This document shows, piece by piece, positions 7,144 to 48,133 of a DNA stretch of 64,000 nt. The DNA comes from a virus, in IMG/VR virus record IMGVR_UViG_3300022752_003639, positions 32,001 through 96,000 of that record; one strand, given 5' to 3'. A program made the position numbers and the translations under genes. The notes beneath the pieces were generated by a model, which was not told the origin of the DNA, made no database searches, and worked only from the letters and a program-made list of their open reading frames with translations. How positions within the stretch are numbered: the first letter of the stretch is position 1; each line of letters begins with the position of its first letter.

Positions 7144-8325
7144 ATGAAAAATGTAGCAGTAATTGGAGCAGGAATAGCAGGAATAACCGCTGCTTATTAT
7201 TTGACACAAGCAGGTTACAATGTTAAAGTTTATGAAAAAGAATCTTATCCTGCTATGGAATGTAGTTATGCAAATGGCGGGCAAATCTCTGTAAGTAATA
7301 GCCAAACATGGAATACTTGGTCAAATGTCTATAAGGGTATTAAATGGTTGGCTCGTAAAGATGCTCCGCTTTTATTAAGACCTAGTTTAGATTGGGATAA
7401 AGCCAAATGGCTAGCTAAGTTTTTATATCATACAGCAAATAATGAATTCGCTAGAAATACAATTAAAACAATTACACTAGGATTAGAATCACGTAAATTG
7501 TATAGTGAGATCGAAAAAGAAGAAAATATAAAATATGATCGGTTGAACAAGGGTATTTTACATATCTATAAAAATGCAAATTATTTCAATGAAGCCATGA
7601 TGTTACAAGAACTTTATGCCCACAATGGGTGCGAATGGCAAATTATTAACGATTATAGTAAATTACTTAAAATTGAACCCGCACTTGAAAAATTTGATAA
7701 CCTAGTTGGAGGTATATATACGCCTAGCGATTATACCGGAGATATTCATAAATTTTGTTTCGAATTATACAAAAAATTAGAAGAAAAATATGATGTTAAA
7801 TTTTTCTTTAATACTGAAATACTATCTATTGAAAAATTATTAGATTACGATCATATCATCATAGCCAACGGCAGTCATGCTAGACATACCAGTAAAATGC
7901 TAGGTGATAATTTACCTATCTATCCAGTAAAAGGCTATAGTATAACAATTAAGTTAGATACTTTGAGCTCATCAGAATCTGCTCCATTCGTAAGCCTTTT
8001 AGACGACGAATCTAAAATAGTAACCAGCAGACTGGGTAATCATCTCAGGGTAGCGGGTACAGCAGAAATAATAGGTGATAATTGGGACATAAGGCAAGAT
8101 AGAATCAATCCACTATTGAAATGGGTTAACAATAATTTTCCTGATATTTCAACAAGATATTACAAACCTTGGGCTTGTCTTAGACCCATGACCCCTAACA
8201 TGCTGCCTATTGTAAAACAAGGTAAAAATCCTAAGATATTTTATCATGTAGGCCATGGCCATTTAGGATGGACATTAGCCAGTGCTACTGCTAAAGAATT
8301 AGTAAGAATTGTTAAAGGAACATAA
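7144..8325 (+). CDS. FAD-dependent D-amino acid dehydrogenase (DadA-like)
   Basis: GAGIAG Rossmann motif, [40 protein letters not shown]. Confidence 0.88.
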
Positions 8326-9257
8326 TGAAAAAAATATTAGTAACAGGTGGAGCAGGTTTTTTAGGTAGCCATTTATGTGAATATCTTTTAAAAAAAGGTA
8401 ATCACGTATTGTGTGTAGATAATTATTTTACTGGAAGTATACAAAATATCCAGCACTTATTACCTAATCCCTATTTTGAATTTTTAAGACAAGATATCTG
8501 TTTTCCATTGTATGTAGAAGTAGATGAAATCTATAACTTGGCCTGCCCTGCTAGTCCTAAGTATTATCAGCTAGATCCTATACAGACCATGAAGACCAGC
8601 ATATTAGGTGCTTACAATATGTTGGGATTGGCCAAACGCACAGGTGCGAAAATTTTACAAGCCAGTACTAGTGAAGTCTATGGTGATCCTCAAATTCACC
8701 CACAGACAGAAGATTATTGGGGCAATGTTAACCCTATTGGGACTCGTGCTTGTTATGATGAAGGCAAACGTTCAGCAGAAACTCTGTTTATGGACTATAG
8801 ACGCAAACATCACGTGGATACAAAAATTGTTAGAATTTTTAATACATACGGACCAAGAGTTGGTATTGACGACGGCCGTGTGATCAGTAATTTCATAGTA
8901 CAAGCGTTAAGAGGAGAAGATATTACCATATATGGTAACGGTAACCAGACCAGGAGCTTTTGTTATGTAGATGATCTAATACGTGGCATGGTATCTATGA
9001 TGGACACCGATTTTTATACCTGCGGGCCGATAAATTTAGGTAACCCCGGTGAATTTACAATACTGGAATTAGCCAAGATTATTTTAGAAAAGACTCATAG
9101 TGTAAGCAAAATAGTATATAAAAAACTACCGGATGACGATCCATTGCAACGTAGACCAAATATAGACATGGCCAAAAAGATATTAAAATGGGAACCTAGT
9201 ATTGATTTAGGTACAGGATTATCATATACCATTGACTATTTTAAATATAGACTGTAA
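8325..9257 (+). CDS. UDP-glucuronate decarboxylase (UDP-xylose synthase-like extended SDR)
   Basis: [51 protein letters not shown]. Confidence 0.9.
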
Positions 9258-9280: not shown

Positions 9281-9469
9281 ATGAATAATTTAAATTATAA
9301 ATGGACATTGGAAGTACAAGAAGACCCTCAAACAGGTGATGCTATGATTCAATTTCCTCCAGATTTTTTAGCTAAAACTGGGTGGAATGAGGGAGACACC
9401 ATAAAATGGCAGGATAACGGAGATGGTTCTTGGACATTGGAAAAAAGTATCAGCACAAAATCAGAGTGA
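9281..9469 (+). CDS. AbrB/MazE-like small DNA-binding protein
   Basis: GDAMIQFPPDFLAKTGWNEGDTIKW matches the AbrB-fold pattern. Confidence 0.7.
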   Translation: MNNLNYKWTLEVQEDPQTGDAMIQFPPDFLAKTGWNEGDTIKWQDNGDGSWTLEKSISTKSE

Positions 9470-9648
9470 ACTGGTCCGACGATCAGGGAAATATCTGGTG
9501 GAATGAAACCTGTGCCATGGTCCTTGAAGTATTCGGACTACCCGGCGATAAGTTCATTTATAAGCCAGAGTATGATTACATGCTATTTGAGTTCGAAGAT
9601 GAGCATGATGCCTTCATGTGTAAACTATTACTAAGTGATAGAATTTGA
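9430..9648 (+). CDS. hypothetical phage protein
   Basis: 72-aa ORF; VLEVFGLPG and FEFEDEHDA motifs; start uncertain. Confidence 0.65.
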   Translation: MDIGKKYQHKIRVNWSDDQGNIWWNETCAMVLEVFGLPGDKFIYKPEYDYMLFEFEDEHDAFMCKLLLSDRI

Positions 9649-9940
9649 TATGTCAGATAATGTTTTATGCAAAGACTGTATTCATGGATTTTTTAGATGG
9701 CAAGATTATCCCATGGCATGGTTTGATAAATCCAGTTATTTGTATTGTAAAAAAGCATATACAGAAGCGACCGAAGAACACGATCCTGTAGTAGGTATAA
9801 GGTACGAACCAGGAAGATATAGGTCAGCAAGATTTGAAAGATTAAAAATTTTTCAAGATGAAACTAGATGTGGGCCGGAAGGAAAATTTTGGTCACCTAA
9901 AAATAAAAAAGATTTATTTGTCTTATTAAAGAGAACATGA
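9635..9940 (+). CDS. hypothetical Cys-containing protein
   Basis: LCKDCIH ... CGPEGKFW. Confidence 0.7.
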   Translation: MIEFDMSDNVLCKDCIHGFFRWQDYPMAWFDKSSYLYCKKAYTEATEEHDPVVGIRYEPGRYRSARFERLKIFQDETRCGPEGKFWSPKNKKDLFVLLKRT

Positions 9941-10131
9941 TGAATAACGATGATATAAAAAACCGTATGAAAGAACTAATGGGGCCCATAGATCGTCAAA
10001 TAATGATGTGCGATGATAGAAACGAACTTATAATGTTAGCTAGCTGTTTAATGATTACCTGTAAAGATTTACTAGATCAAGAAATAGGTACACGAGGAAG
10101 AAAATTAATGTTCGAGGATTTTTCAAAATGA
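9937..10131 (+). CDS. hypothetical protein
   Basis: 64-aa ORF, ATGA-coupled. Confidence 0.7.
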   Translation: MMNNDDIKNRMKELMGPIDRQIMMCDDRNELIMLASCLMITCKDLLDQEIGTRGRKLMFEDFSK

Positions 10132-10325
10132 AAACTGAAAAAATTATTAGACAAACTGAAGATTTTCGTTTAATTTTAAAAAAAACTTTGTGCGACTCCC
10201 CTAAAAATCTATATCATATAGAATTAGAGGGGCAGCAAATTAGAGACAAAACTTTTACCAGTACCTATAGTTTCTTCTTGACCAAAGAAGAAATAGTGTT
10301 ATTGACTCAGCACCTTGCAGACTGA
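10128..10325 (+). CDS. hypothetical protein
   Basis: 65-aa ORF, ATGA-coupled. Confidence 0.65.
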   Translation: MKTEKIIRQTEDFRLILKKTLCDSPKNLYHIELEGQQIRDKTFTSTYSFFLTKEEIVLLTQHLAD

Positions 10326-10327
10326 AT

Positions 10328-11287
10328 ATGCAAATTATACCGCTAAAAGGAGGAAGTTTAAGTTCAACTAATCATCATAAAGATAATAATTTTGAATTTG
10401 TAAGGAAAACCATTAATCTTTCATCGTCTAGAGAATACGGGTATGTAAGATGGTATTCTCAGTTAAAAAAGTTGCAGAGATTTACGACAATGTGGCCAAA
10501 TCTTGTCCCTAAAGTTTTAAGCGTTGGAGTAGAAAATGGCAACGCTTATTTTGATTTAGAATTTTTACAGGGATATACAGACATAAAAACTATTTTTTCA
10601 AGAGATCATATATCAGATAATCTCATTTTAAAAATTAATAATTCACTTTGGCAAGCATTTAATAAAATTCATGCAAATAAGTTAATTGCAAACAAAGGAG
10701 CAACTTTTCTTTACTTTCAAGAAGAAATATTTCAAAAAATTTTAGATGCAAGAAAAAATGAAGGATTTAACAATTTTCTTAAACATAATTCATATTTTTA
10801 TAATGGTCAAAAAGTTCCTAATATTGTAAATGAGCTGCATGTATTAGAAAAATATTTTTCATCTATAGATTTAGAATATGAAAACTTTATTCATGGCAAT
10901 CCCACACTTGAAAACACCATGTATTCAATAGATGAAGACAAAATAAAATTTATAGATTTATATGAAGAAAGTATAATAGATAGTAAGTTTTTAGACTATA
11001 GTCAGGTATTACAATGTTCTAGAAGCTTTTATGGATTTATTAATGATAGAGAAGTCAATATCAATGGTAACTCAGTATTTTATAACCAAGTAGTTCCAAA
11101 AAATTATTTGAAATTTACAGAATGTTTTCTTAATAATATTAATAAAAAAGATTTAACATTTATAGATATTTTAGAAGCTAGTCAATTTATAAGAATGTTG
11201 CCATTTAAATGTTATGCAGGAGAAATAGACAAGGCTAAATATTTCTTCGTACATGCTTGTTACCTATTTAATAAGATTTTTAAATGA
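10328..11287 (+). CDS. aminoglycoside/choline-kinase-like phosphotransferase fold protein
   Basis: LKGGSLS nucleotide loop, FVRK, HGNPTLEN (HGDxxxxN-like), KFIDLY. Confidence 0.65.
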   Translation: MQIIPLKGGSLSSTNHHKDNNFEFVRKTINLSSSREYGYVRWYSQLKKLQRFTTMWPNLVPKVLSVGVENGNAYFDLEFLQGYTDIKTIFSRDHISDNLILKINNSLWQAFNKIHANKLIANKGATFLYFQEEIFQKILDARKNEGFNNFLKHNSYFYNGQKVPNIVNELHVLEKYFSSIDLEYENFIHGNPTLENTMYSIDEDKIKFIDLYEESIIDSKFLDYSQVLQCSRSFYGFINDREVNINGNSVFYNQVVPKNYLKFTECFLNNINKKDLTFIDILEASQFIRMLPFKCYAGEIDKAKYFFVHACYLFNKIFK

Positions 11288-12378
11288 ATACTTGGAATAT
11301 AAATTGCCAATTAGAACAAGAATTTTCGATAATAGAAACATATGATCTTACTAATAATAATTTTTTAAAAAACCATATAGATTTTAATAAAAGACAAATT
11401 ATTATTGTAGATAAAAAAATTAGTTTATTATATTCCGACTTTCTTGATATATTTCCAGATGCTGTAATACTAAAACTTCAAATCGAAGAAACTCAAAAAA
11501 ATTTGCAAAGTATTGAAAAGATTATTAATTTTTTCAACCATAATAATCTTTTAAGAAGAGAAGAAGTAATTGCAATAGGAGGAGGAGTGTTATTGGATTT
11601 GGTAGGATTTGCATGTAGTATATATAGAAGAGGAATTCCGTATATAAAAATTCCTACTACTTTACTTGCCTACGTAGATGCAAGTATAGGTACTAAGGTT
11701 GGAATTAATTACTTAGGTAAAAGAAATAGATTGGGTAGCTATTATCCCCCTTCTAAAGTCTTATTAGACAAAAAGTTCTTCAAAACTCAAGAAGAAAAAC
11801 AGATTATAAATGGAATTGGTGAAATTTTAAAACTCGCTATTATTAGCAATTTAAAATTATTCGAACTTATTGAACAAGGTAATAATATCGTTTCAAACTC
11901 ATTACAAAATAGCGATGAAATATTATTTCAATCTATAGATACCATGGTTAACGAACTACAAAACAATCTGTATGAAAGAAACTTAAAACGACCAGTAGAT
12001 TTTGGACATACATTTAGTCCTATGATTGAAATGAAAAATCTACCTTCTATGTTACATGGTGAAGCAGTAATGTTAGATTGCTTTTTTTCCTGTTGCTTAA
12101 GTTATTATAAAAACTTTATAACCAAACAAGACCTAAATCGTATATACAATTGTATAAGAAAATACAAACTGCCAACTTTTCATTCGGATTTCGCAGACAT
12201 AAATTTAATTCTAATGTCACTAGAAGAGACAACACTACATAGAGACGGTTATCAAAATATTCCTTTACCAAAAACTTTAGGAAAGAATATCATTACTAAT
12301 GGTGTCACTTCAGACGACTTAAAAAAAACCATTGAAATATTCTTAGAATATGAAAACAGCATTAATCACAGGAACTAG
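11284..12378 (+). CDS. sedoheptulose-7-phosphate cyclase (EEVS-like, DHQS superfamily)
   Basis: GGGVLLD, YRRG, PTTL, KxNRLGSY, EILK, MVNELQNNLYE, DFGHTFSP. Confidence 0.8.
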   Translation: MNTWNINCQLEQEFSIIETYDLTNNNFLKNHIDFNKRQIIIVDKKISLLYSDFLDIFPDAVILKLQIEETQKNLQSIEKIINFFNHNNLLRREEVIAIGGGVLLDLVGFACSIYRRGIPYIKIPTTLLAYVDASIGTKVGINYLGKRNRLGSYYPPSKVLLDKKFFKTQEEKQIINGIGEILKLAIISNLKLFELIEQGNNIVSNSLQNSDEILFQSIDTMVNELQNNLYERNLKRPVDFGHTFSPMIEMKNLPSMLHGEAVMLDCFFSCCLSYYKNFITKQDLNRIYNCIRKYKLPTFHSDFADINLILMSLEETTLHRDGYQNIPLPKTLGKNIITNGVTSDDLKKTIEIFLEYENSINHRN

Positions 12379-13021
12379 TCAAGGACTGGGCAAGGATATA
12401 GCCCAATACTTTTTACAAAATAACTTTAAGGTGATAGGACTTTCTAGAACTGTTGGCAATATTGAACATAAAAACTTTATTCATATTCCAATAGACTTGT
12501 CATGCCATGATCAGTTAGCTAAGTTGTTCAATAACTTTCCTTATCAGGTAGATTTGGTTATACATAATGCAGCAAGATTTAAACAGTCAACACTAGAAAA
12601 TCTGTCCATAGAAGAAATTTGTAATATATTAAATGTCAATATCAAATCACCTGTAATACTTACTAAACTACTTTTACCCTATATAAGTAAAAACAGTCAT
12701 ATTATCTTTATAAACAGTGTAGCAGGACTCTATAATTTAGATAATCAGTCAGTGTATTGTGCAAGTAAACACGCTCTTACATCTTTTGCCAAGATCATTG
12801 GTAAAGAATTAAGAAAAGATAAAATAAAAGTATTCAGTATTCATCCAGGAGGAATTAATACACCGTTGTGGAACGAATCTAATCCATACCCTCTTGGTGA
12901 TCATAACAAAGCATTATCAAAAACCGAAATCGTAAAAATAATAGATTTAATATTAAATTTAAATGATAATACATATGTTAGTAATATTGAAGTGTTTCCT
13001 ACAATAGAATGGCACGGATAA
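12350..13021 (+). CDS. short-chain dehydrogenase/reductase
   Basis: TGTSQGLG, HNAA, NSVAG, YCASK, IHPGG. Confidence 0.9.
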   Translation: MKTALITGTSQGLGKDIAQYFLQNNFKVIGLSRTVGNIEHKNFIHIPIDLSCHDQLAKLFNNFPYQVDLVIHNAARFKQSTLENLSIEEICNILNVNIKSPVILTKLLLPYISKNSHIIFINSVAGLYNLDNQSVYCASKHALTSFAKIIGKELRKDKIKVFSIHPGGINTPLWNESNPYPLGDHNKALSKTEIVKIIDLILNLNDNTYVSNIEVFPTIEWHG

Positions 13022-13081: not shown

Positions 13082-14110
13082 ATGACAAAAAAAATTGGTT
13101 TTGCGTGTAAGTGGATTGATAGGCCTGATCAAGTAAACGGAATTAAGGCTAAAGACGACTGTAAAAAATATAATACAGGCACGACTACCGTAGCTTGGTT
13201 AAATAGACAAAGTAAAGATGTTGCTGAAAAAAAACTGTGGGATCTACTTAAAAACAATATTGAATCTACACGTTTATTAGTTGAAAGGGTTGGGAAATTA
13301 AATGAAAAACTTCGTATGGTACGTCTTAGCAGTGACATTCTCCCTGTTTATACTGAACCAAGTTGGAGCTATTTCTATAGAGATAACACCGTTCGCCAGT
13401 ATCTTGAACGCCATTTTCTCACTATTGGGGATATTGCTCGTAGGGATAATATTCGCTTGTCTTTTCATCCTGGCCAGTATACTGTGCTTGCTTCTGATAA
13501 TCCAGAAATTGTTAATAGGTCAATAGAGGAATTTGAATATCATGTGGATATGGCCCGTTGGATGGGATACGGTAAGAAATTTCAAGACTTTAAAATCAAT
13601 GTCCACATCGCGGGTCGCGCCGGTCCCCAAGGCATTAGAAACGTCTTTTCAAGATTGTCTCCAGAAGCACGTAACACAATTACCATCGAAAATGAAGAAA
13701 TAAAGTACGGCCTAGCTGATTGTTTAGAATTAGCAGATATCTTGCCTATTGTACTAGATGTACATCATTTTTGGGTTAGAGAAGGAGAGTATATTCAACC
13801 AGAAGATCCTCTTGTTTACAAAGTATTAGAAAGTTGGCGAGGAGAAAGGCCTGTTCTTCATTACAGTATAAGTAGAGAAGATGTATTGGTAGGACACGAT
13901 CCGGGCGGAGCTCCTTTTATGGAATCAATACTAAGACGAGGTATAACAAAACAAAAATTACGTGCTCACAGTGATTTTTTCTGGAATCACACAGTGAATA
14001 GATATGTTCTTAGATTCGCTGATCAATTCGATATCATGTGCGAAAGTAAAGGTAAAAATATTGCCAGTTTTGCCTTGTTTGAGTTTGCCGAAACCAATGG
14101 CTTAATTTAA
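13082..14110 (+). CDS. uvsE: UV damage endonuclease
   Basis: KIGFACK, RMVRLSSD, RLSFHPGQY, INVHI, IENEE, LDVHH, HYS, RAHSD, MCESKGK. Confidence 0.9.
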   Translation: MTKKIGFACKWIDRPDQVNGIKAKDDCKKYNTGTTTVAWLNRQSKDVAEKKLWDLLKNNIESTRLLVERVGKLNEKLRMVRLSSDILPVYTEPSWSYFYRDNTVRQYLERHFLTIGDIARRDNIRLSFHPGQYTVLASDNPEIVNRSIEEFEYHVDMARWMGYGKKFQDFKINVHIAGRAGPQGIRNVFSRLSPEARNTITIENEEIKYGLADCLELADILPIVLDVHHFWVREGEYIQPEDPLVYKVLESWRGERPVLHYSISREDVLVGHDPGGAPFMESILRRGITKQKLRAHSDFFWNHTVNRYVLRFADQFDIMCESKGKNIASFALFEFAETNGLI

Positions 14111-14503
14111 TTATTGAGCCTTTTTCGTCCTGCCACGAGTTTTCTTAACCACAGTTTCCTCGACTTTAGTCTTGGCTCTTTTAGCTGCTACTCTAGCATC
14201 TGAAAGAGTCACTTTACCATCACCGTCTAAATCTGCAAGTTTTTTAGCTCTGCCTCTAGTCTTTTTAACAGTTTCTTCTACTTTTGTGGCGATTTGTTTG
14301 GCTTCTTCTTCCGCTTTGGACGTTAAAGCCTTTACGTCAGATAAATTTACCTTTCCGTCCTTGTTTACGTCCATTGTATTAGGTATAACTTCTCCGGCTT
14401 TGTTAATTAAACTTGAAGTTGCTTCTTGTATTTTTGGATTTTTGTTATAAAACCACCAAACTGCTCCTGCAACAATACCTACTATTAAAATAATAATTTC
14501 CAT
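14111..14503 (-). CDS. membrane-anchored protein with two EF-hand-like loops and basic repeats
   Basis: N-terminal TM; DVNKDGKVNLSD and DLDGDGKVTLSD; KVEETV(V)KKTRGR twice; minus-strand TAAATA at 14531-14536. Confidence 0.75.
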   Translation of the reverse strand: MEIIILIVGIVAGAVWWFYNKNPKIQEATSSLINKAGEVIPNTMDVNKDGKVNLSDVKALTSKAEEEAKQIATKVEETVKKTRGRAKKLADLDGDGKVTLSDARVAAKRAKTKVEETVVKKTRGRTKKAQ

Positions 14504-14843: not shown

Positions 14844-17800
14844 ATGAGTAACGCCCGTCCTAATCTTGTTGATTTACCTGTTTTAACTGATCCAGATCCG
14901 GCTACAACGCTGTTTATTGTGCAGGATTCAGCAGTTAATCAAACCTTATCTGTAACTTTAGCACAAACTTTACTAGCACAAAAAGGTCCTACAGGGCCTC
15001 AGGGTCCACAAGGTATTACTGGCCCTACAGGACCAAGTGGTCCTCAGGGTATAACAGGGCCGCAGGGACCAATTGGTATAACTGGACCACAAGGTCCACA
15101 AGGCGTAACTGGACCACAAGGTCCACAAGGTCCACAAGGCGTAACTGGACCACAGGGTCCAAGTGGACCACAAGGCGTGACTGGACCACAAGGTCCAATT
15201 GGAGTTACAGGACCACAGGGCCCAATAGGACCACAAGGTCCCACAGGAGCAGGTGTTACAGGACCAACAGGTCCGTATAGTACAGTAACCAACAACCTAG
15301 AAGGAGGAGCCCTAGGTAGCATTCCATATCAAAATGCATCTAGTGTTACAGTATTTTTAGGTATCGGCGCTAATAATGCAATTTTAAGATCTAACGGAAG
15401 TATACCAACCTGGGCATCAAGTGGCACTGTACAAGTTGGATTTGCTACACAAGCCAAACAATTATATATTAATAATGTTTTAGATGATGCTATACCTGCT
15501 GTAAGATATCCGGCGCTTTCGGCAGGACCAAATGCGTTTGACGATGTCTCTGTTAACGCAAATTTATTTTACGACCTTTCTAAACAGAAACTTTCAGTCG
15601 GAGTAGTATCAGTAACATCAACAACAAATTCTACCAGTACCACTACAGGCGCATTTACAGTTTCTGGTGGTATGGCAGTGGCGAAAGATGTATTCATTGG
15701 CGGAAATGTAAGTATACTAGGTGCATTAAACATAGGAACTAATCTTAGCGTTAATAATGTTAATACATCTACTAATTTGGCAGGAGGTGTAGCAGGAGCT
15801 ATACCATATCAAACATCAACAGGACAAACTAGCTTTTTTGGTCCGGGTAGTAACGGTAATGTTTTAGTTGCCAATGGCTCAGCTATGCCGACGTTTAATA
15901 ATACATTAACATTATTCGGTTTAGCAAATTCTACTAATCAGTTTACCGGTGCTTTTCAAGTTAGAGGTGGTGCAGGAATAGGTCAAGCTCTGTGGGTAGG
16001 CGGTAAAATTGTTTCTTTAAGCACGGACCAAGCTACATCTACATTAACAGGCGCATTAGTAGTATCTGGGGGTGCAGGAATTGGTGGTAATCTATATGTA
16101 GCTGGTGAGATCGTAGCAGATAAATTAACTATTCAATACACCACTGTTACTACCACGTTGGTAGTAACAGACGACGTTATAGAAACTACGAATTCAACAC
16201 AGGCAATAAGCACCACGACGGGAGCATTAAAAGTAGCGGGCGGTGCTGGTATAGGTAGAAATTTATATGTCGGAGGTACTATATTTGGTACAGCTACCAA
16301 TGCCACTTCAGCAGCTAATTTATCAGGTGGTGCCCAAGGAAGTATACCTTACCAGACTAACATAGGTCAAACAGCATTTATTCCAATAGGCACAAGTAGT
16401 TATATCCTAGTTTCAAACGGTAGTACAGCAACATGGTTAAATCCTAACAACTTAAGTTCTGGCGCAAGTACAACGGCTTCTAACTTGTCATTTGGTGACC
16501 AATACTTAATCCCCTACCAAACAGGTCCAGGTAGTACAACATTTGAATACGGGTTTGAATATTGGTACAACGATAATTTATTCAGTGTAACAAATGTTGT
16601 TATAAATGGCACTATTGGTTCTCCTTCACCCAACACAGGATCTTTAAGAGTTTTGGGAGGAGTAGGCATAGCACAAAACGTAGCAGTTGGCGGGCAAGGA
16701 TTATTTGCCAACGGTGCTAATGCAAGTTCTACTAACAGTGGTGCAGTTATTGTAACCGGTGGAGTTGGTATTGGCGCAAATTTATACGTAGGTGGACAGA
16801 CTAATCTAGCAGGAATTAACACCGTAGTAAATGCAACAAATGCAGGCTCTACCAATTCAGGCGCACTACAGGTAGTAGGAGGAGTTGGAATAGGTCAAAG
16901 TTTAGTTGTAGGCGGACGCACGACTATTACTAATATTACATCAGCTACTTCAACAATAACTGGTGCATTTAATGTGTTTGGCGGAGTAGGAGTTGGCGGA
17001 GACATATTTGTAGGAGGAACCATCTATGGTAATGCCAGTGGTATTATTTCAACAGCTACAAATTTAAATGGTGGGGTAGCCGGACAGACACCTTATCAAC
17101 AAAGTCCCGGAAGAACCGTTTTCACAGGTCCAGGTAATGCCGGCGAAGTAATGGTCAGTAGAGGATCAGGAGGACCTGCATTTTTTAATACACTGACGTT
17201 GGATGGATTAACTGTTTCTGTAAGTACTTTGACAGGGGCTTTTCAAGTAAGGGGTGGAGCTGGCATAGGAGGAGATTTATATGCTAGTCGTATGCGAACA
17301 GTTTTTGGTACACAAGCTACATCAACTATAACAGGCGACTTAGTTACACAAGGTGGCGTAGGCATAGGTGGTAATTTATATGTAGGTGGCAATATTGTAG
17401 GTAACCTTGGTGTAGCTGTAAATACAGCCAGCCAGGTTAATACAGTTTCATTACCTATTTCAGGTACATATTATCCAACTTTTGTAGATTCAAACAATGC
17501 TTCTTCTAGTGGTGAATTATTATATACTACTAGCAGTGTTTCTGTTAACCCAAACAGTGGATTTTTCACAGCCAATGGAGTTTCTTTACCACAAAATACT
17601 GTAGGTACAAATTACTTCGGAGTTTCGGGTGAACCAACATATTATATTGGTCAAACTGTTGGTAACACAGACGGCTGGAAAATCTATGGCGAAAGCCCGG
17701 CAGGAAACGAAACAAGTAACTTTATTTTACAATCAGAAAACGATTACGATCAGAATGAATCTATAAGATTTAGATTTAAACGTACCTACGGCACATATAT

Positions 17801-18281
17801 TACTAATGATATACTTGTGGCAAAATATGATCAAGTTTATATTACCACAGGAACTTTCCAAGTAGGTTATACCAGTCCACAAGCAGGATCAACAGCATCA
17901 ATAAATGGTTCATTATATGTTAATGGTGAAATCAGAGCCACTGGAGATGTCACAGCCTATTATACTTCAGATGCCAGTTTGAAAGAAAACATAAGATTAA
18001 TTGACAACCCAATTACACTGATAAACCAAATTCACGGTTACTATTTTGACTGGAAGGAAGATTTTATTGAAAGTCGTGGCGGAGAAGACGGGTTCTTTGT
18101 AAGAAAGCAAGATGTTGGTGTTATTGCTCAAGAGATAGAAAAAATACTTCCGCAACTTGTCGCTACGAAACCAAACGGGCATAAAGCTATTCAATATGGA
18201 AAAATTATTCCATTACTTATTGAATCAGTTAAATATCTTGCGTCAGAAGTAGAAAATTTAAAAAATAACTTAAAGAAATAA
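14844..18281 (+). CDS. tail fibre with collagen-like repeats and C-terminal intramolecular chaperone (S74-like)
   Basis: Gly-X-Y run; repeated NLxGGxxGxIPYQ and STxTGAxxVxGGxG units; C-terminal SDASLKENI ... GVIAQEIE ... coiled coil; TAAATA at 14818-23. Confidence 0.85.
14985..15275 (+). repeat. collagen-like (GPQ/GPT/GVT)n coding repeat
   Basis: About 32 Gly-X-Y triplets, with recurring ggaccacaaggt-like DNA units. Confidence 0.95.
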
Positions 18282-46567: not shown

Positions 46568-46664
46568 TTGGATTAAAAAAATTATTGCCGACTATCGTAG
46601 GCGTAGGCAAATAAAGAAACGTATAGAAGAGCTTAAAAAGCGAGATCCGTTTATCTACAAATGA
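46560..46664 (+). CDS. 34-aa basic peptide
   Basis: Read manually: MFNWIKKIIADYRRRRQIKKRIEELKKRDPFIYK, coupled to the next gene. Confidence 0.65.
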   Translation: MFNWIKKIIADYRRRRQIKKRIEELKKRDPFIYK

Positions 46665-48133
46665 TTATTTGGGGAATAAGTGCTAACAGTCACGATGCTG
46701 CCTTGTCTGTGTGGCATGACAAAACAATACAATTTGCTGCTCATAGTGAACGGTATAGCAAGATTAAAAATGACGGCGATCTACATCCCAAACTTATCGC
46801 AGAAGCAAAACAGTATGGCGAGCCAGATCTTGTTGTCTGGTATGAAAATCCTTTACTAAAAACATTTAGGCAATTTACAGCAGGCCAAGGATGGAACTGG
46901 TCTGAGAACAATATAAGACAATATCTTAAACGCTATGACATACACAGTCATGTACACATAGGTTCACATCATCACAGTCACGCCGCTGCCGGTTTTTATA
47001 CCAGTAAGTTTAATGATGCAACAGTCATCTGTATAGACAGCATCGGTGAATATGAAACGCTGACAATTTGGCGAGGTATAGGTAACAATCTCAATAAGTG
47101 GTATACGCAGGGTTATCCTCACAGCATAGGTCTTTGGTATAGCGCAATGACTCAAAGGATAGGCCTCAAGCCCAATGAAGAAGAATATATCCTAATGGGA
47201 ATGGCAGCATATGGCAACCCAGAAAGATTATATCATGTTATTCTAGAAGATTTTTTTAAGAGCACAAAGGCTCCTGGAATAAAGTTTAAGAATAATTTGC
47301 ATAGAGGCTGCAAATGGTGGCGCCCTGATTTAGTTTCCGAACAGGATATGTTCGATATAGCAGCGGCTACCCAGGCAGTATACGCTGACCTATTACGATC
47401 TATTACACAGTATGCAAGAAAAGTATTACCAAGCAGAAATCTAGTGTTAATGGGCGGATGTGCCTTAAACTGTTCTGCCAATAGTCTAATTACTGCCGAC
47501 TGGGATAATGTATGGATAATGCCTAATCCGGGAGATGCAGGCAGTTCCATAGGTAGTGTATGCAGTTATTTTCAAGAAAAAATCTCATGGCCAGGTCCAT
47601 ATCTAGGCACAGACATGGGAGGTCCTTATCCTGTTGAGGAAACTATCAATGTTCTTAGATCTAGAAAAATTGTGGGTATGGCTAATGGTAGAGCCGAGTT
47701 TGGGCCTCGTGCCCTTGGACATAGAAGTTTACTGGCGGATCCGAGGGGAAATGATATTAAAGATAGTGTGAATGAAATTAAACGCAGACAAAAATTTAGA
47801 CCGTTTGCACCTGCTATATTAGAAGAACATGCGGCCGATTATTTTATCATGCCCCAAAATATATCATCCAGTCCTTACATGCAATTTGTAGCAAAATGTA
47901 GACATCCTGATCTGTTTCCTGCTATAATTCATGCAGATGGTACAAGTAGAGTTCAAACAGTTGGAAAAAATGACAGCCCTGGATTTAGGTCTCTACTAGA
48001 AAAATGGTTTGAAGAAACAGGATGTCCTATGTTACTAAACACTAGCCTTAATATAAAAGGACAACCAATTGTAAATGACGAAATTGATGCGTTAGCATTC
48101 GAAGAAAGGTATAATGTTAAAGTTTTTACGTAG
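46661..48133 (+). CDS. carbamoyltransferase (NodU/CmcH family)
   Basis: HDAA, SERYSKIKND, HHHSHAAA, GGCALNC, PGDAGSS, EFGPRALGHRS, RPFAP, DGTSRVQTV, LNTSLN. Confidence 0.92.
   Translation: MIIWGISANSHDAALSVWHDKTIQFAAHSERYSKIKNDGDLHPKLIAEAKQYGEPDLVVWYENPLLKTFRQFTAGQGWNWSENNIRQYLKRYDIHSHVHIGSHHHSHAAAGFYTSKFNDATVICIDSIGEYETLTIWRGIGNNLNKWYTQGYPHSIGLWYSAMTQRIGLKPNEEEYILMGMAAYGNPERLYHVILEDFFKSTKAPGIKFKNNLHRGCKWWRPDLVSEQDMFDIAAATQAVYADLLRSITQYARKVLPSRNLVLMGGCALNCSANSLITADWDNVWIMPNPGDAGSSIGSVCSYFQEKISWPGPYLGTDMGGPYPVEETINVLRSRKIVGMANGRAEFGPRALGHRSLLADPRGNDIKDSVNEIKRRQKFRPFAPAILEEHAADYFIMPQNISSSPYMQFVAKCRHPDLFPAIIHADGTSRVQTVGKNDSPGFRSLLEKWFEETGCPMLLNTSLNIKGQPIVNDEIDALAFEERYNVKVFT

Follow-up and report, generated by a model that had tools for sequence, protein, structure and literature searches.

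A three-gene phage cassette predicted to make a C7-cyclitol phosphate, and the nucleotidyltransferase its relatives carry

Three overlapping genes in a 64,000-nucleotide stretch of phage DNA (hereafter the window) encode a kinase-fold protein, a sugar-phosphate cyclase and a short-chain dehydrogenase/reductase, and they raise the question of what a virus would make with them and whether the three genes suffice to make it. C7-cyclitols occur in antibiotics (acarbose, validamycin), in a symbiont insecticide (kirkamide) and in sunscreens (gadusol, MAAs).

The locus and the pathway proposed for it

The first gene, KIN (10328-11287, plus strand, 319 aa), encodes a kinase-fold protein (APH/choline-kinase fold) that is proposed to act as a cyclitol kinase; the second, CYC (11284-12378, plus strand, 364 aa), an EEVS-type sugar-phosphate cyclase; and the third, SDR (12350-13021, plus strand, 223 aa), a classical short-chain dehydrogenase/reductase, proposed to be a ketoreductase acting on the cyclase product. 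Pfam domains were found in CYC (DHQ_synthase, N- and C-terminal) and SDR (adh_short), and none in KIN. The initial annotation had described three overlapping genes, and the list of open reading frames places them at exactly 10328-13021, co-oriented and all uninterrupted, with overlaps of 4 nt between KIN and CYC and 29 nt between CYC and SDR. Its impression that they are more AT-rich than their flanks also held: the GC content of the cassette, 27.2%, is the lowest among 614 sliding segments of 2694 bp (mean 36.1%, sd 3.1), an AT-richness that exceeds chance, and GC3 is 17-22% in the cassette genes, whereas it is 28% in the UXS and UvdE genes on either side. Promoter-like sites numbered 35, compared with 29.6 +/- 6.1 in shuffled sequence, and because this is not above expectation no transcription start is claimed.

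The cassette occupies a slot bordered on the left by a UXS-like gene (8325-9257, plus strand), whose product resembles UDP-glucuronate decarboxylases and NDP-sugar dehydratases and contains GDP_Man_Dehyd and Epimerase domains, and on the right by uvdE (13082-14110, plus strand; PF03851 at 1.3e-36), encoding a UvdE UV-damage endonuclease, with a terminator-like hairpin (14099-14120) at its 3' end. Both are regarded here as context genes, and no pathway role is implied for the UXS-like gene. The source is a large freshwater phage: the viral origin assumed at the outset agrees with a DNA polymerase, a baseplate hub and the IMG/VR record itself. The exact DNA recurs in lake metagenomes from several studies. 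The record searched extends over 138 kb, about 35% of the phage genome.

Taken together, the trio probably turns sedoheptulose 7-phosphate (SH7P) into a reduced, phosphorylated C7 ring pseudo-sugar. In the pathway that we infer, whose substrate, step order, phosphorylated position and product fate are all predicted, host SH7P would be cyclised by CYC to a 2-epi-5-epi-valiolone-type ketocyclitol, the ring ketone would be reduced by SDR, and KIN, with its anomeric sugar kinase fold, would phosphorylate the new hydroxyl to give a C7-cyclitol phosphate. Conversion of this compound into an NDP-cyclitol would, in about 150 related loci, fall to a dedicated NTP_transferase. In the lineage of the window, activation would have to come from the host, from a phage gene located in the remaining about 65% of the genome, or not take place, in which case the cyclitol phosphate would be the end product. 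Should this chemistry be true, phages would divert a host pentose-phosphate intermediate into a carbocyclic pseudo-sugar, a type of auxiliary metabolism that would be new for viruses.

A widespread four-gene cassette and its missing member

The KIN-CYC-SDR core is present on at least 103 viral (IMG/VR) and 136 metagenome contigs and in 7 of about 185,000 species genomes; many freshwater phages thus carry the cassette, but few cellular genomes do. Gene order is kept in 89 loci from the initial set and in 80 further metagenome loci, KIN and CYC are naturally fused in P0277, and the KIN, CYC and SDR of the window are 46-60% identical to their four-gene-cassette homologues, which have the same order and orientation. 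An NTP_transferase gene adjoins 68 of the 90 non-redundant complete cassettes and lies no more than about 1.5 kb away in a further 11, and it is downstream in 2 cellular loci. The trio forms the core of a four-gene cassette, NTP_transferase-KIN-CYC-SDR, which is widespread and whose carriers are uncultured aquatic phages together with a small number of bacteria and archaea. With this cassette it shares the HGN hallmark of KIN, the SH7P-cyclase motifs and tight gene coupling. Since the fourth member is a nucleotidyltransferase, the cassette as a whole suggests a pathway to an activated pseudo-sugar, not to a free protectant. Detection depended on the method, as a search of genome contigs with the single KIN protein found nothing and an alignment-based search was needed. 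Neither blastn nor megablast of the cassette and a 10-kb stretch matched any of 50,697 phage records, and tblastn of the cyclase against the same records gave only AroB-like matches at 26-30% identity, largely in bacterial-looking records. Our literature search found no paper on the cassette and no assay of its enzymes. Among the cellular copies, a methyltransferase and a GT4 glycosyltransferase lie near one (L085) and the surroundings of another (L086) are uninformative, so these copies are not claimed to sit in surface-sugar loci.

The window differs from the four-gene cassette in lacking the nucleotidyltransferase and in its slot. No cassette NTP_transferase lies within about 2 kb of the locus; neither PF00483, PF12804 nor relatives of the cassette enzyme were found in the 138-kb record (about 35% of the genome); and no remnant was detected in the window by tblastn with 147 NTP_transferase proteins or by the family HMM. 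The same condition is seen in a small lineage comprising the window and the loci L090, L091 and L093, where the slot is always delimited by the UXS-like gene and uvdE. The UXS-like gene of the window shares 72% identity with the gene that immediately precedes the L091 cassette, a UXS-like gene directly abuts KIN in L092, and uvdE shares 64-79% identity with the genes that follow the cassette in L091 and L090. The grouping of the window with L091 and L093 has an SH-aLRT of 85 in the concatenated tree and is absent from the cyclase-only tree. As L091, with 6 kb of upstream DNA available, also has no nucleotidyltransferase, the loss is common to at least one syntenic relative and appears to be a stable state. 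This lineage represents a natural experiment in which the three-gene core was kept and the activating enzyme dropped, indicating which unit is indispensable and raising the question of whether the cyclitol phosphate is itself a functional product.

Decay of the locus was considered and rejected. In both trees the branch leading to the window copy is the longest. Its composition is odd, and its GC content falls 9.2 points relative to its flanks, a drop that no related locus among the 110 measured reaches (median -1.6, minimum -7.2); among the cassette copies compared, both its drop and its branch are the most extreme. Yet its reading frames are intact, near-invariant columns are almost all retained (54 of 55 in KIN, 71 of 76 in CYC and all in SDR), the slot is the same in syntenic relatives and the DNA recurs in lakes. 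Judged by its sequence, the copy is diverging fast but is not decayed.

On balance, we lean slightly towards the view that the trio is a working version of the cassette, which would make a reduced C7-cyclitol phosphate whose activation takes place elsewhere or is unneeded. A full activated-carbasugar pathway is a possible but doubtful alternative. Here, a nucleotidyltransferase from the unsampled genome or the host would produce the NDP-cyclitol, and a glycosyltransferase would place the cyclitol on a host or virion glycan. Nearly all relatives do have the NTP_transferase gene, and with about 35% of the genome covered such a gene may lie elsewhere in it; moreover, a nucleotide-sugar enzyme, the UXS-like protein, adjoins the cassette, and a search of the record for GT2, GT4 and Glyco_tranf_2_4 glycosyltransferases found one GT4 protein, although it is encoded about 25 kb upstream, far from the cassette. 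Against the complete pathway stand the absence of both NTP_transferase Pfam families from 138 kb, a loss shared with L091, and the lack of a transferase linked to the cassette in the window.

A kinase fold with an altered catalytic loop

Within the preferred reading, phosphorylation is assigned to KIN. At E <= 0.01 this protein is recognised by neither Pfam nor NCBIfam, the APH (PF01636) and Choline_kinase models included. Its AF2 model has a pLDDT of 93, and Foldseek relates this model with a probability of 1.00 to NahK, MTR kinase, LicA and APH(3')/(2''), the nearest solved folds being NahK and MTR kinase, both anomeric kinases, and LicA. The kinase-like character first ascribed to the protein is thus substantiated as a bilobal kinase fold by structural matches of the predicted model. 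The catalytic loop, HGNPTLEN, carries Asn in place of the Asp base of H-x-D-x4-N. All 27 aligned members share this Asn, as does every full-length close representative in which a motif scan located the loop, so that HGN is fixed in the close, cyclase-linked KIN subfamily, whereas distant relatives have HGD. The other family invariants, namely GGSLS, K27, N196 and D210, would, judged from their motif positions, fit an ATP- and Mg-binding site. The fixed change from Asp to Asn constitutes a second puzzle, independent of the missing nucleotidyltransferase. When the KIN family profile was compared with solved sequences, only weak matches were obtained (E about 0.02), to the IHGN loop of the JAK2 JH2 pseudokinase. 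Because the HGN loop is invariant and aligns with a pseudokinase loop, phosphotransfer by KIN is not assured.

It is accordingly conceivable, but unlikely, that KIN is not a phosphotransferase at all and serves as a pseudokinase partner of CYC or catalyses other chemistry, such as the nucleotidyl transfer that occurs in SelO-type kinase folds, so that the product would be no simple cyclitol phosphate. The substitution in every close member speaks for this possibility, as do the retention of HGD in distant relatives, the pseudokinase loop as the sole sequence-level PDB match, and natural KIN-CYC fusion proteins (P0277). It is opposed by the invariance of the glycine-rich loop, K27, N196 and D210, by top fold matches that are active small-molecule kinases, and by the usual neighbour, a nucleotidyltransferase, which requires a phosphorylated substrate. 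A related proposal, improbable to a similar degree, treats KIN-CYC-SDR as self-sufficient: with its Asn for Asp, KIN would perform an unconventional activation or form a complex with CYC, and the product of the lineage without NTP_transferase would be a free small molecule, a phosphorylated or otherwise activated carbasugar, that acts as an inhibitor or signal during infection (host enzymes of heptose or glycan metabolism being possible targets) and not as a glycan building block.

If KIN is a kinase, as the preferred reading has it, the closest functional parallels would be salvage pairs of an anomeric kinase and a nucleotidyltransferase, represented by NahK, MTR kinase and LicA with LicC; AmgK/MurU is another pairing of a kinase with a nucleotidyltransferase. 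The KIN fold is similar to theirs, and their logic of phosphorylation followed by nucleotide transfer is also seen in the cassette relatives and in fusions of APH with NTP_transferase, which are among the structural neighbours of KIN in the atlas. The differences are the Asn for Asp in KIN, a predicted substrate that the neighbouring enzymes would synthesise de novo as a carbocyclic pseudo-sugar, and the absence of the transferase partner from the window. P0122, 60% identical to KIN, is among the closest proteins in the databases.

The cyclase, the reductase and known C7-cyclitol systems

The initial annotation had taken CYC for an EEVS-like SH7P cyclase rather than a dehydroquinate synthase, and several lines of evidence agree. 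Both DHQ_synthase domains are recognised (PF01761 at 6.9e-36, PF24621 at 1e-22), and the motifs it quoted are present: KRNRLGSY at residues 146-153, MVNELQNNLYE at 222-232 and DFGHTFSP at 240-247. Among solved relatives, ValA is the closest (4P53, 231.7 bits, 1.2e-67), followed by DDGS (5TPR, 192.4 bits, 1.1e-55), the best DHQS (152.3 bits, 1.7e-43) and, as the weakest of these, DOIS (2D2X, 82.2 bits, 3.3e-22). In alignment, VDFGHTFSP, LHRDG and KRNRLGSY are of the SH7P-cyclase type. Residue identities at two sites that form an EEVS/DDGS fingerprint were reportedly given by Kean et al. 2014; we take the sites to be ValA-281 and ValA-360, a numbering that our alignments back. CYC has Asp and His there, the same residues as ValA, whereas they are replaced by Ala and Thr in DDGS and by Asn and Lys in AroB, and the two sites are said to tell EEVS from DDGS (PMC4426668). 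In a phylogeny including AroB, EboD and DDGS, CYC falls within the SH7P-cyclase clade and not with AroB: a single clade (SH-aLRT 98), with no characterised member, unites the cassette cyclases inside the group of SH7P cyclases and DDGS (98), whereas an EboD pair forms a separate clade (100) and both EboD and AroB lie outside the group. On these motif and tree comparisons CYC is an EEVS-type SH7P cyclase, a designation that spans EEVS and EVS, as the reference set included no EVS enzyme.

Three other assignments were considered and rejected. CYC scores 215.7 bits against the AroB model TIGR01357, below its cut-off of 305, and has D-FGHTFSP and KRNRLGSY where two AroB references have N-[FL]GHT[IF]GH and KNM[IL]G.F. 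It carries Asp and His rather than the Ala and Thr of DDGS, and is not accompanied by the O-methyltransferase and ATP-grasp neighbours found in the Nostoc DDGS locus. EboD enzymes form their separate clade, have different motifs (GHW..H and ..GTF) and belong in eboA-F clusters, and no ebo genes lie near the cassette. EboD is close to SH7P cyclases and yet uses mannose 6-phosphate (PMC12904256; PMC5133447), so clade membership alone cannot give the substrate of CYC. With this precedent, and with the cassette cyclases in a clade of their own, CYC might use another sugar phosphate (a hexose 6-phosphate, as EboD and DOIS do, or DAHP, as AroB does) and yield a C6 cyclitol or dehydroquinate. We consider this very unlikely, given the score under the aroB cut-off, the position of AroB and EboD outside the clade holding the cassette, the low rank of DOIS, and the GHTFSP, KNRLG-Y, Asp and His features, which fit annotated SH7P cyclases and neither EboD nor AroB (N..GH..GH).

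Reduction of the cyclase product is attributed to the third gene, whose annotation as an SDR is upheld by the adh_short match (6.2e-37, 127 bits) and by classical motifs in the translation: TGTSQGLG, HNAA, NSVAG (with the Ser) and YCASK. An Arg after strand 2 suggests NADPH as the cofactor. The protein shares 50-52% identity with the SDRs that occupy the equivalent position in L002, L090 and L091, and its solved relatives are generic ketoreductases only.

A role in making a UV sunscreen precursor of the gadusol or mycosporine type would fit the adjacent UV-damage endonuclease gene, which lies directly downstream in the window, L090 and L091, but it can be set aside almost entirely, because CYC bears the Asp and His fingerprint instead of the Ala and Thr of DDGS, the cassette has no methyltransferase, MT-Ox or ATP-grasp gene, unlike the Nostoc DDGS locus, and uvdE was matched in none of the loci L002-L089 and, when metagenome loci were checked, in L090 and L091 only, a conserved slot border of one small lineage that counts against the UV-protectant reading. 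The absence of a methyltransferase had been pointed out in the initial annotation and is correct, so that gadusol/MAA synthesis is not encoded in the cassette. The UV-protectant, glycosidase-inhibitor and DNA-decoration roles that it suggested found no specific support, the cyclase pattern being that of EEVS and not DDGS.

The best-described system for comparison is the GDP-valienol branch of acarbose and validamycin biosynthesis, which employs the cyclase AcbC/ValA, the kinases AcbM/ValC and AcbU, the redox enzymes AcbL and AcbN, and the nucleotidyltransferase AcbR/ValB (PMC9200736). The cassette shares with it an EEVS-type cyclisation of SH7P at the start, followed by redox tailoring and phosphorylation, and nucleotidylylation of the carbasugar is also expected in most cassette relatives, whereas the window has no nucleotidyltransferase. 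None of the three window genes was recognised as an epimerase, dehydratase, phosphatase or pseudoglycosyltransferase, and the cassette resides in a phage genome rather than in an actinomycete or rhizobial antibiotic cluster. The kinases differ as well: four cellular SH7P-cyclase clusters with a cyclase-adjacent kinase carry a ROK-family enzyme, the family of the AcbM/ValC-type C7-cyclitol kinases, whereas the window cassette contains no ROK domain and its KIN, of the APH/choline-kinase fold, bears Asn at the position of the catalytic Asp. The SDR of the window is 21% identical to that of one of these ROK-kinase clusters.

Locus and cyclase class

On sequence evidence, the window appears to carry a real phage cassette for a C7-cyclitol, conserved among relatives and present here as a rare variant lacking the nucleotidyltransferase gene (NTP) of related cassettes. 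The source record is a 138,457-bp IMG/VR virus sequence (~35% complete by CheckV), of which the window represents bases 32001-96000; phage genes in the window encode a family-B DNA polymerase, a baseplate-hub/lysozyme protein and an ATP-dependent protease, among others. The three overlapping AT-rich genes of the initial annotation are borne out as plus-strand ORFs for a kinase-fold protein (KIN; 10328-11287, 319 aa), a sugar-phosphate cyclase (CYC; 11284-12378, 364 aa) and a short-chain dehydrogenase/reductase (SDR; 12350-13021, 223 aa), all co-oriented and overlapping by 4 nt (KIN/CYC) and 29 nt (CYC/SDR). The cassette GC content of 27.2% is the minimum among 614 sliding windows of equal size (mean 36.1%, sd 3.1), and its GC3 is 17-22% versus 28% in flanking genes.

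Both DHQ_synthase domains were detected in CYC (Pfam), which scores 215.7 bits against the aroB equivalog model (cut-off 305). Among solved structures, it ranks ValA, an EEVS, first (1.2e-67), followed by DDGS (1.1e-55), DHQS (1.7e-43 and weaker) and DOIS (3.3e-22). Its best matches in annotated plasmid records are all labelled "sedoheptulose 7-phosphate cyclase" (33-41% identity, at most 252 bits), while Nostoc DDGS reaches 201 bits, EboD 155 bits and AroBs 124-137 bits. In an AroB-rooted tree of these annotated references and 31 cassette cyclases, two EboD sequences branch first (SH-aLRT 100), and the cassette cyclases form a single clade (98) nested in the group of annotated sedoheptulose 7-phosphate (SH7P) cyclases and DDGS (98). 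EboD cautions that tree position alone cannot give a cyclase's substrate (PMC12904256). EEVS and DDGS are told apart by two fingerprint sites (eLife gadusol paper, PMC4426668). In the alignment, CYC carries Asp and His at these sites, as do ValA and the annotated SH7P cyclases, together with the motifs KRNRLGSY, VDFGHTFSP and LHRDG; the corresponding positions hold Ala and Thr in DDGS, Asn, GH..GH and Lys in AroB, and GHW..H and ..GTF in EboD. Kean et al. 2014 is reportedly the source for which residues occupy the two fingerprint sites. The initial identification was right; with references for EEVS, DDGS, DHQS, EboD and DOIS, the class assigned to CYC takes in EEVS and EVS alike.

Related cassettes and the missing nucleotidyltransferase

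An alignment-based scan with KIN located relatives in IMG/VR viral contigs (103 loci, 80 examined), JGI metagenome contigs (136 loci, 80 examined) and ~185,000 GTDB species genomes (7 loci, six of them in MAGs or single-cell assemblies). Nearly all related loci share the gene order NTP_transferase-KIN-CYC-SDR. Among 90 non-redundant complete cassettes, NTP is adjacent in 68, lies ~1.5 kb upstream in 11, beyond a small gene and a RuBisCO-like gene, and is downstream in two cellular loci. The intervening RuBisCO-large-subunit-like protein (for example L077:5761-6999 in the L066-L082 phage group; PF00016, 9.9e-44) sits with a 113-aa protein between NTP and KIN. In most phage loci (L003-L065; examples at L041:5572-6285, L075:9734-10444 and L061:1980-2822), the four genes are directly flanked by three conserved proteins of 230-280 aa; these match no Pfam family except for one weak DUF7796 hit, are candidate transferases, and are all missing from the window.

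No NTP adjoins KIN in the window, no remnant was found in any of its frames (tblastn with 147 NTP proteins; family HMM), and the 138,457-bp record, ~35% complete, yielded neither a PF00483 or PF12804 match nor any relative of the cassette-type NTP. This absence is not a one-off. Four syntenic metagenome contigs (L090, L091, L092 and L093) share the slot, in the order queD-like, UXS-like (UDP-glucuronate decarboxylase / NDP-sugar dehydratase-like), KIN-CYC-SDR and uvdE (UV-damage endonuclease), and L091 also lacks an NTP gene across 6 kb upstream of KIN. Amino acid identities of these relatives to the window are 87% for queD-like, 72% for UXS-like, 55-59% for KIN, 46-48% for CYC, 51-52% for SDR and 64-79% for uvdE. 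A concatenated tree rooted on cellular copies places the window together with L091 and L093 (SH-aLRT 85), although its branch is the longest and the grouping is not recovered in the cyclase-only tree. As this group is sister to a 46-row adjacent-NTP clade (90), the topology is compatible with a single NTP loss.

Compared with its own flanks, the cassette is consistently faster-diverging and richer in AT throughout the window lineage, as illustrated by L091 versus L090 (cassette 58-65% identity, UvdE 79%) and by GC content in L090 (cassette 33.0% vs uvdE 45.1%). The window cassette nevertheless keeps near-invariant columns (54/55 in KIN, 71/76 in CYC and all in SDR), and its exact DNA recurs in lake and freshwater metagenomes of several studies; it is a gene set under maintenance rather than debris.

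Kinase-fold protein, reductase and proposed pathway

KIN matches no Pfam or NCBIfam model. An AlphaFold model based on 27 homologues has high confidence (pLDDT 93), with N-acetylhexosamine 1-kinase, 5-methylthioribose kinase, LicA and aminoglycoside phosphotransferases as the nearest solved folds. The family conserves a Gly-rich loop (GGSLS), K27, N196 and D210, but its catalytic-loop sequence is HGNPTLEN, in which Asn occupies the position of the kinase catalytic Asp; at the sequence level, the only PDB matches fall in the JAK2 pseudokinase domain, at its IHGN loop. When 1.84 billion representatives were searched with a profile, 780 relatives were recovered. Where a motif scan found the loop, it is HGN in all full-length relatives down to ~140 bits and HGD from ~107 bits downwards, making Asn-for-Asp a derived and fixed trait that marks the cyclase-linked subfamily. 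KIN is tied to its partners by a natural KIN-CYC fusion (P0277, 728 aa), by fusions of distant HGD relatives to HAD or LPG-synthase domains, and by APH and NTP_transferase fusions among its Atlas structural neighbours. Another relative (P0255, 480 aa) combines KIN with a GIY-YIG and NUMOD3 homing-endonuclease tail, hinting at a possible route of cassette movement. The SDR protein is a classical SDR with standard motifs; its solved relatives are generic ketoreductases, and it shares only 21% identity with the SDR of an Agrobacterium cyclitol cluster.

The most likely order of reactions is CYC, SDR, KIN. CYC would convert host SH7P to a valiolone-type ketocyclitol, SDR would reduce the ketone, and KIN would phosphorylate the new hydroxyl in the fashion of anomeric sugar kinases. 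In most phages, the product would then be activated by NTP, a step that in the window lineage would either be supplied from elsewhere or be unnecessary. The analysis establishes what the genes encode, the cyclase subclass, the gene linkage and the absence of NTP from the sequence covered, and the substrate, step order, phosphorylated position and product fate are inferred. Among known pathways, the nearest is the GDP-valienol branch of acarbose and validamycin synthesis, which differs in using ROK and other kinases, extra tailoring enzymes and a pseudoglycosyltransferase (PMC9200736). A ROK kinase is likewise present in all four cellular SH7P-cyclase clusters whose cyclase adjoins a kinase. 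Nothing specific supports the sunscreen, inhibitor or DNA-decoration roles suggested initially. No published description of a phage SH7P cyclase was found; the viral setting, the lack of NTP and the kinase fold with Asn in place of Asp are all previously undescribed and open to direct testing.

Neighbouring genes

Upstream of the cassette, the UXS-like nucleotide-sugar gene (8325-9257) is start/stop-coupled to a D-amino-acid-dehydrogenase-like FAD oxidoreductase gene (7144-8325; PRK12409, 462.6 bits, just below the cut-off of 494), which looks like an insertion in the window phage because it has no match in syntenic L091. Five small ORFs (9281-10325; 62-101 aa each, no family for the one checked) separate the UXS-like gene from KIN; this interval holds a single 90-aa ORF in L091, and the two genes abut in L092. 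On the other side, uvdE shares a terminator-like hairpin (14099-14120) with a convergent minus-strand gene (14111-14503), whose 130-aa product has a hydrophobic segment near its N-terminus and two calcium-binding repeats of EF-hand / dockerin-like type. A 1145-aa protein encoded 1.8 kb downstream of the cassette (14844-18281) has a long collagen-like G-x-x (GPQGPxG) repeat close to the N-terminus and is probably a fibre. Another sugar- or metabolite-modifying gene of this phage encodes a NodU/CmcH-type carbamoyltransferase (46661-48133; phrog_1601, 6.2e-99). A search of the 138-kb record for GT2, GT4 and Glyco_tranf_2_4 found a sole glycosyltransferase, a GT4 enzyme (PF00534, 2.7e-17) encoded outside the window at ~16.8-17.9 kb of the record, ~25 kb upstream of the cassette (L170).
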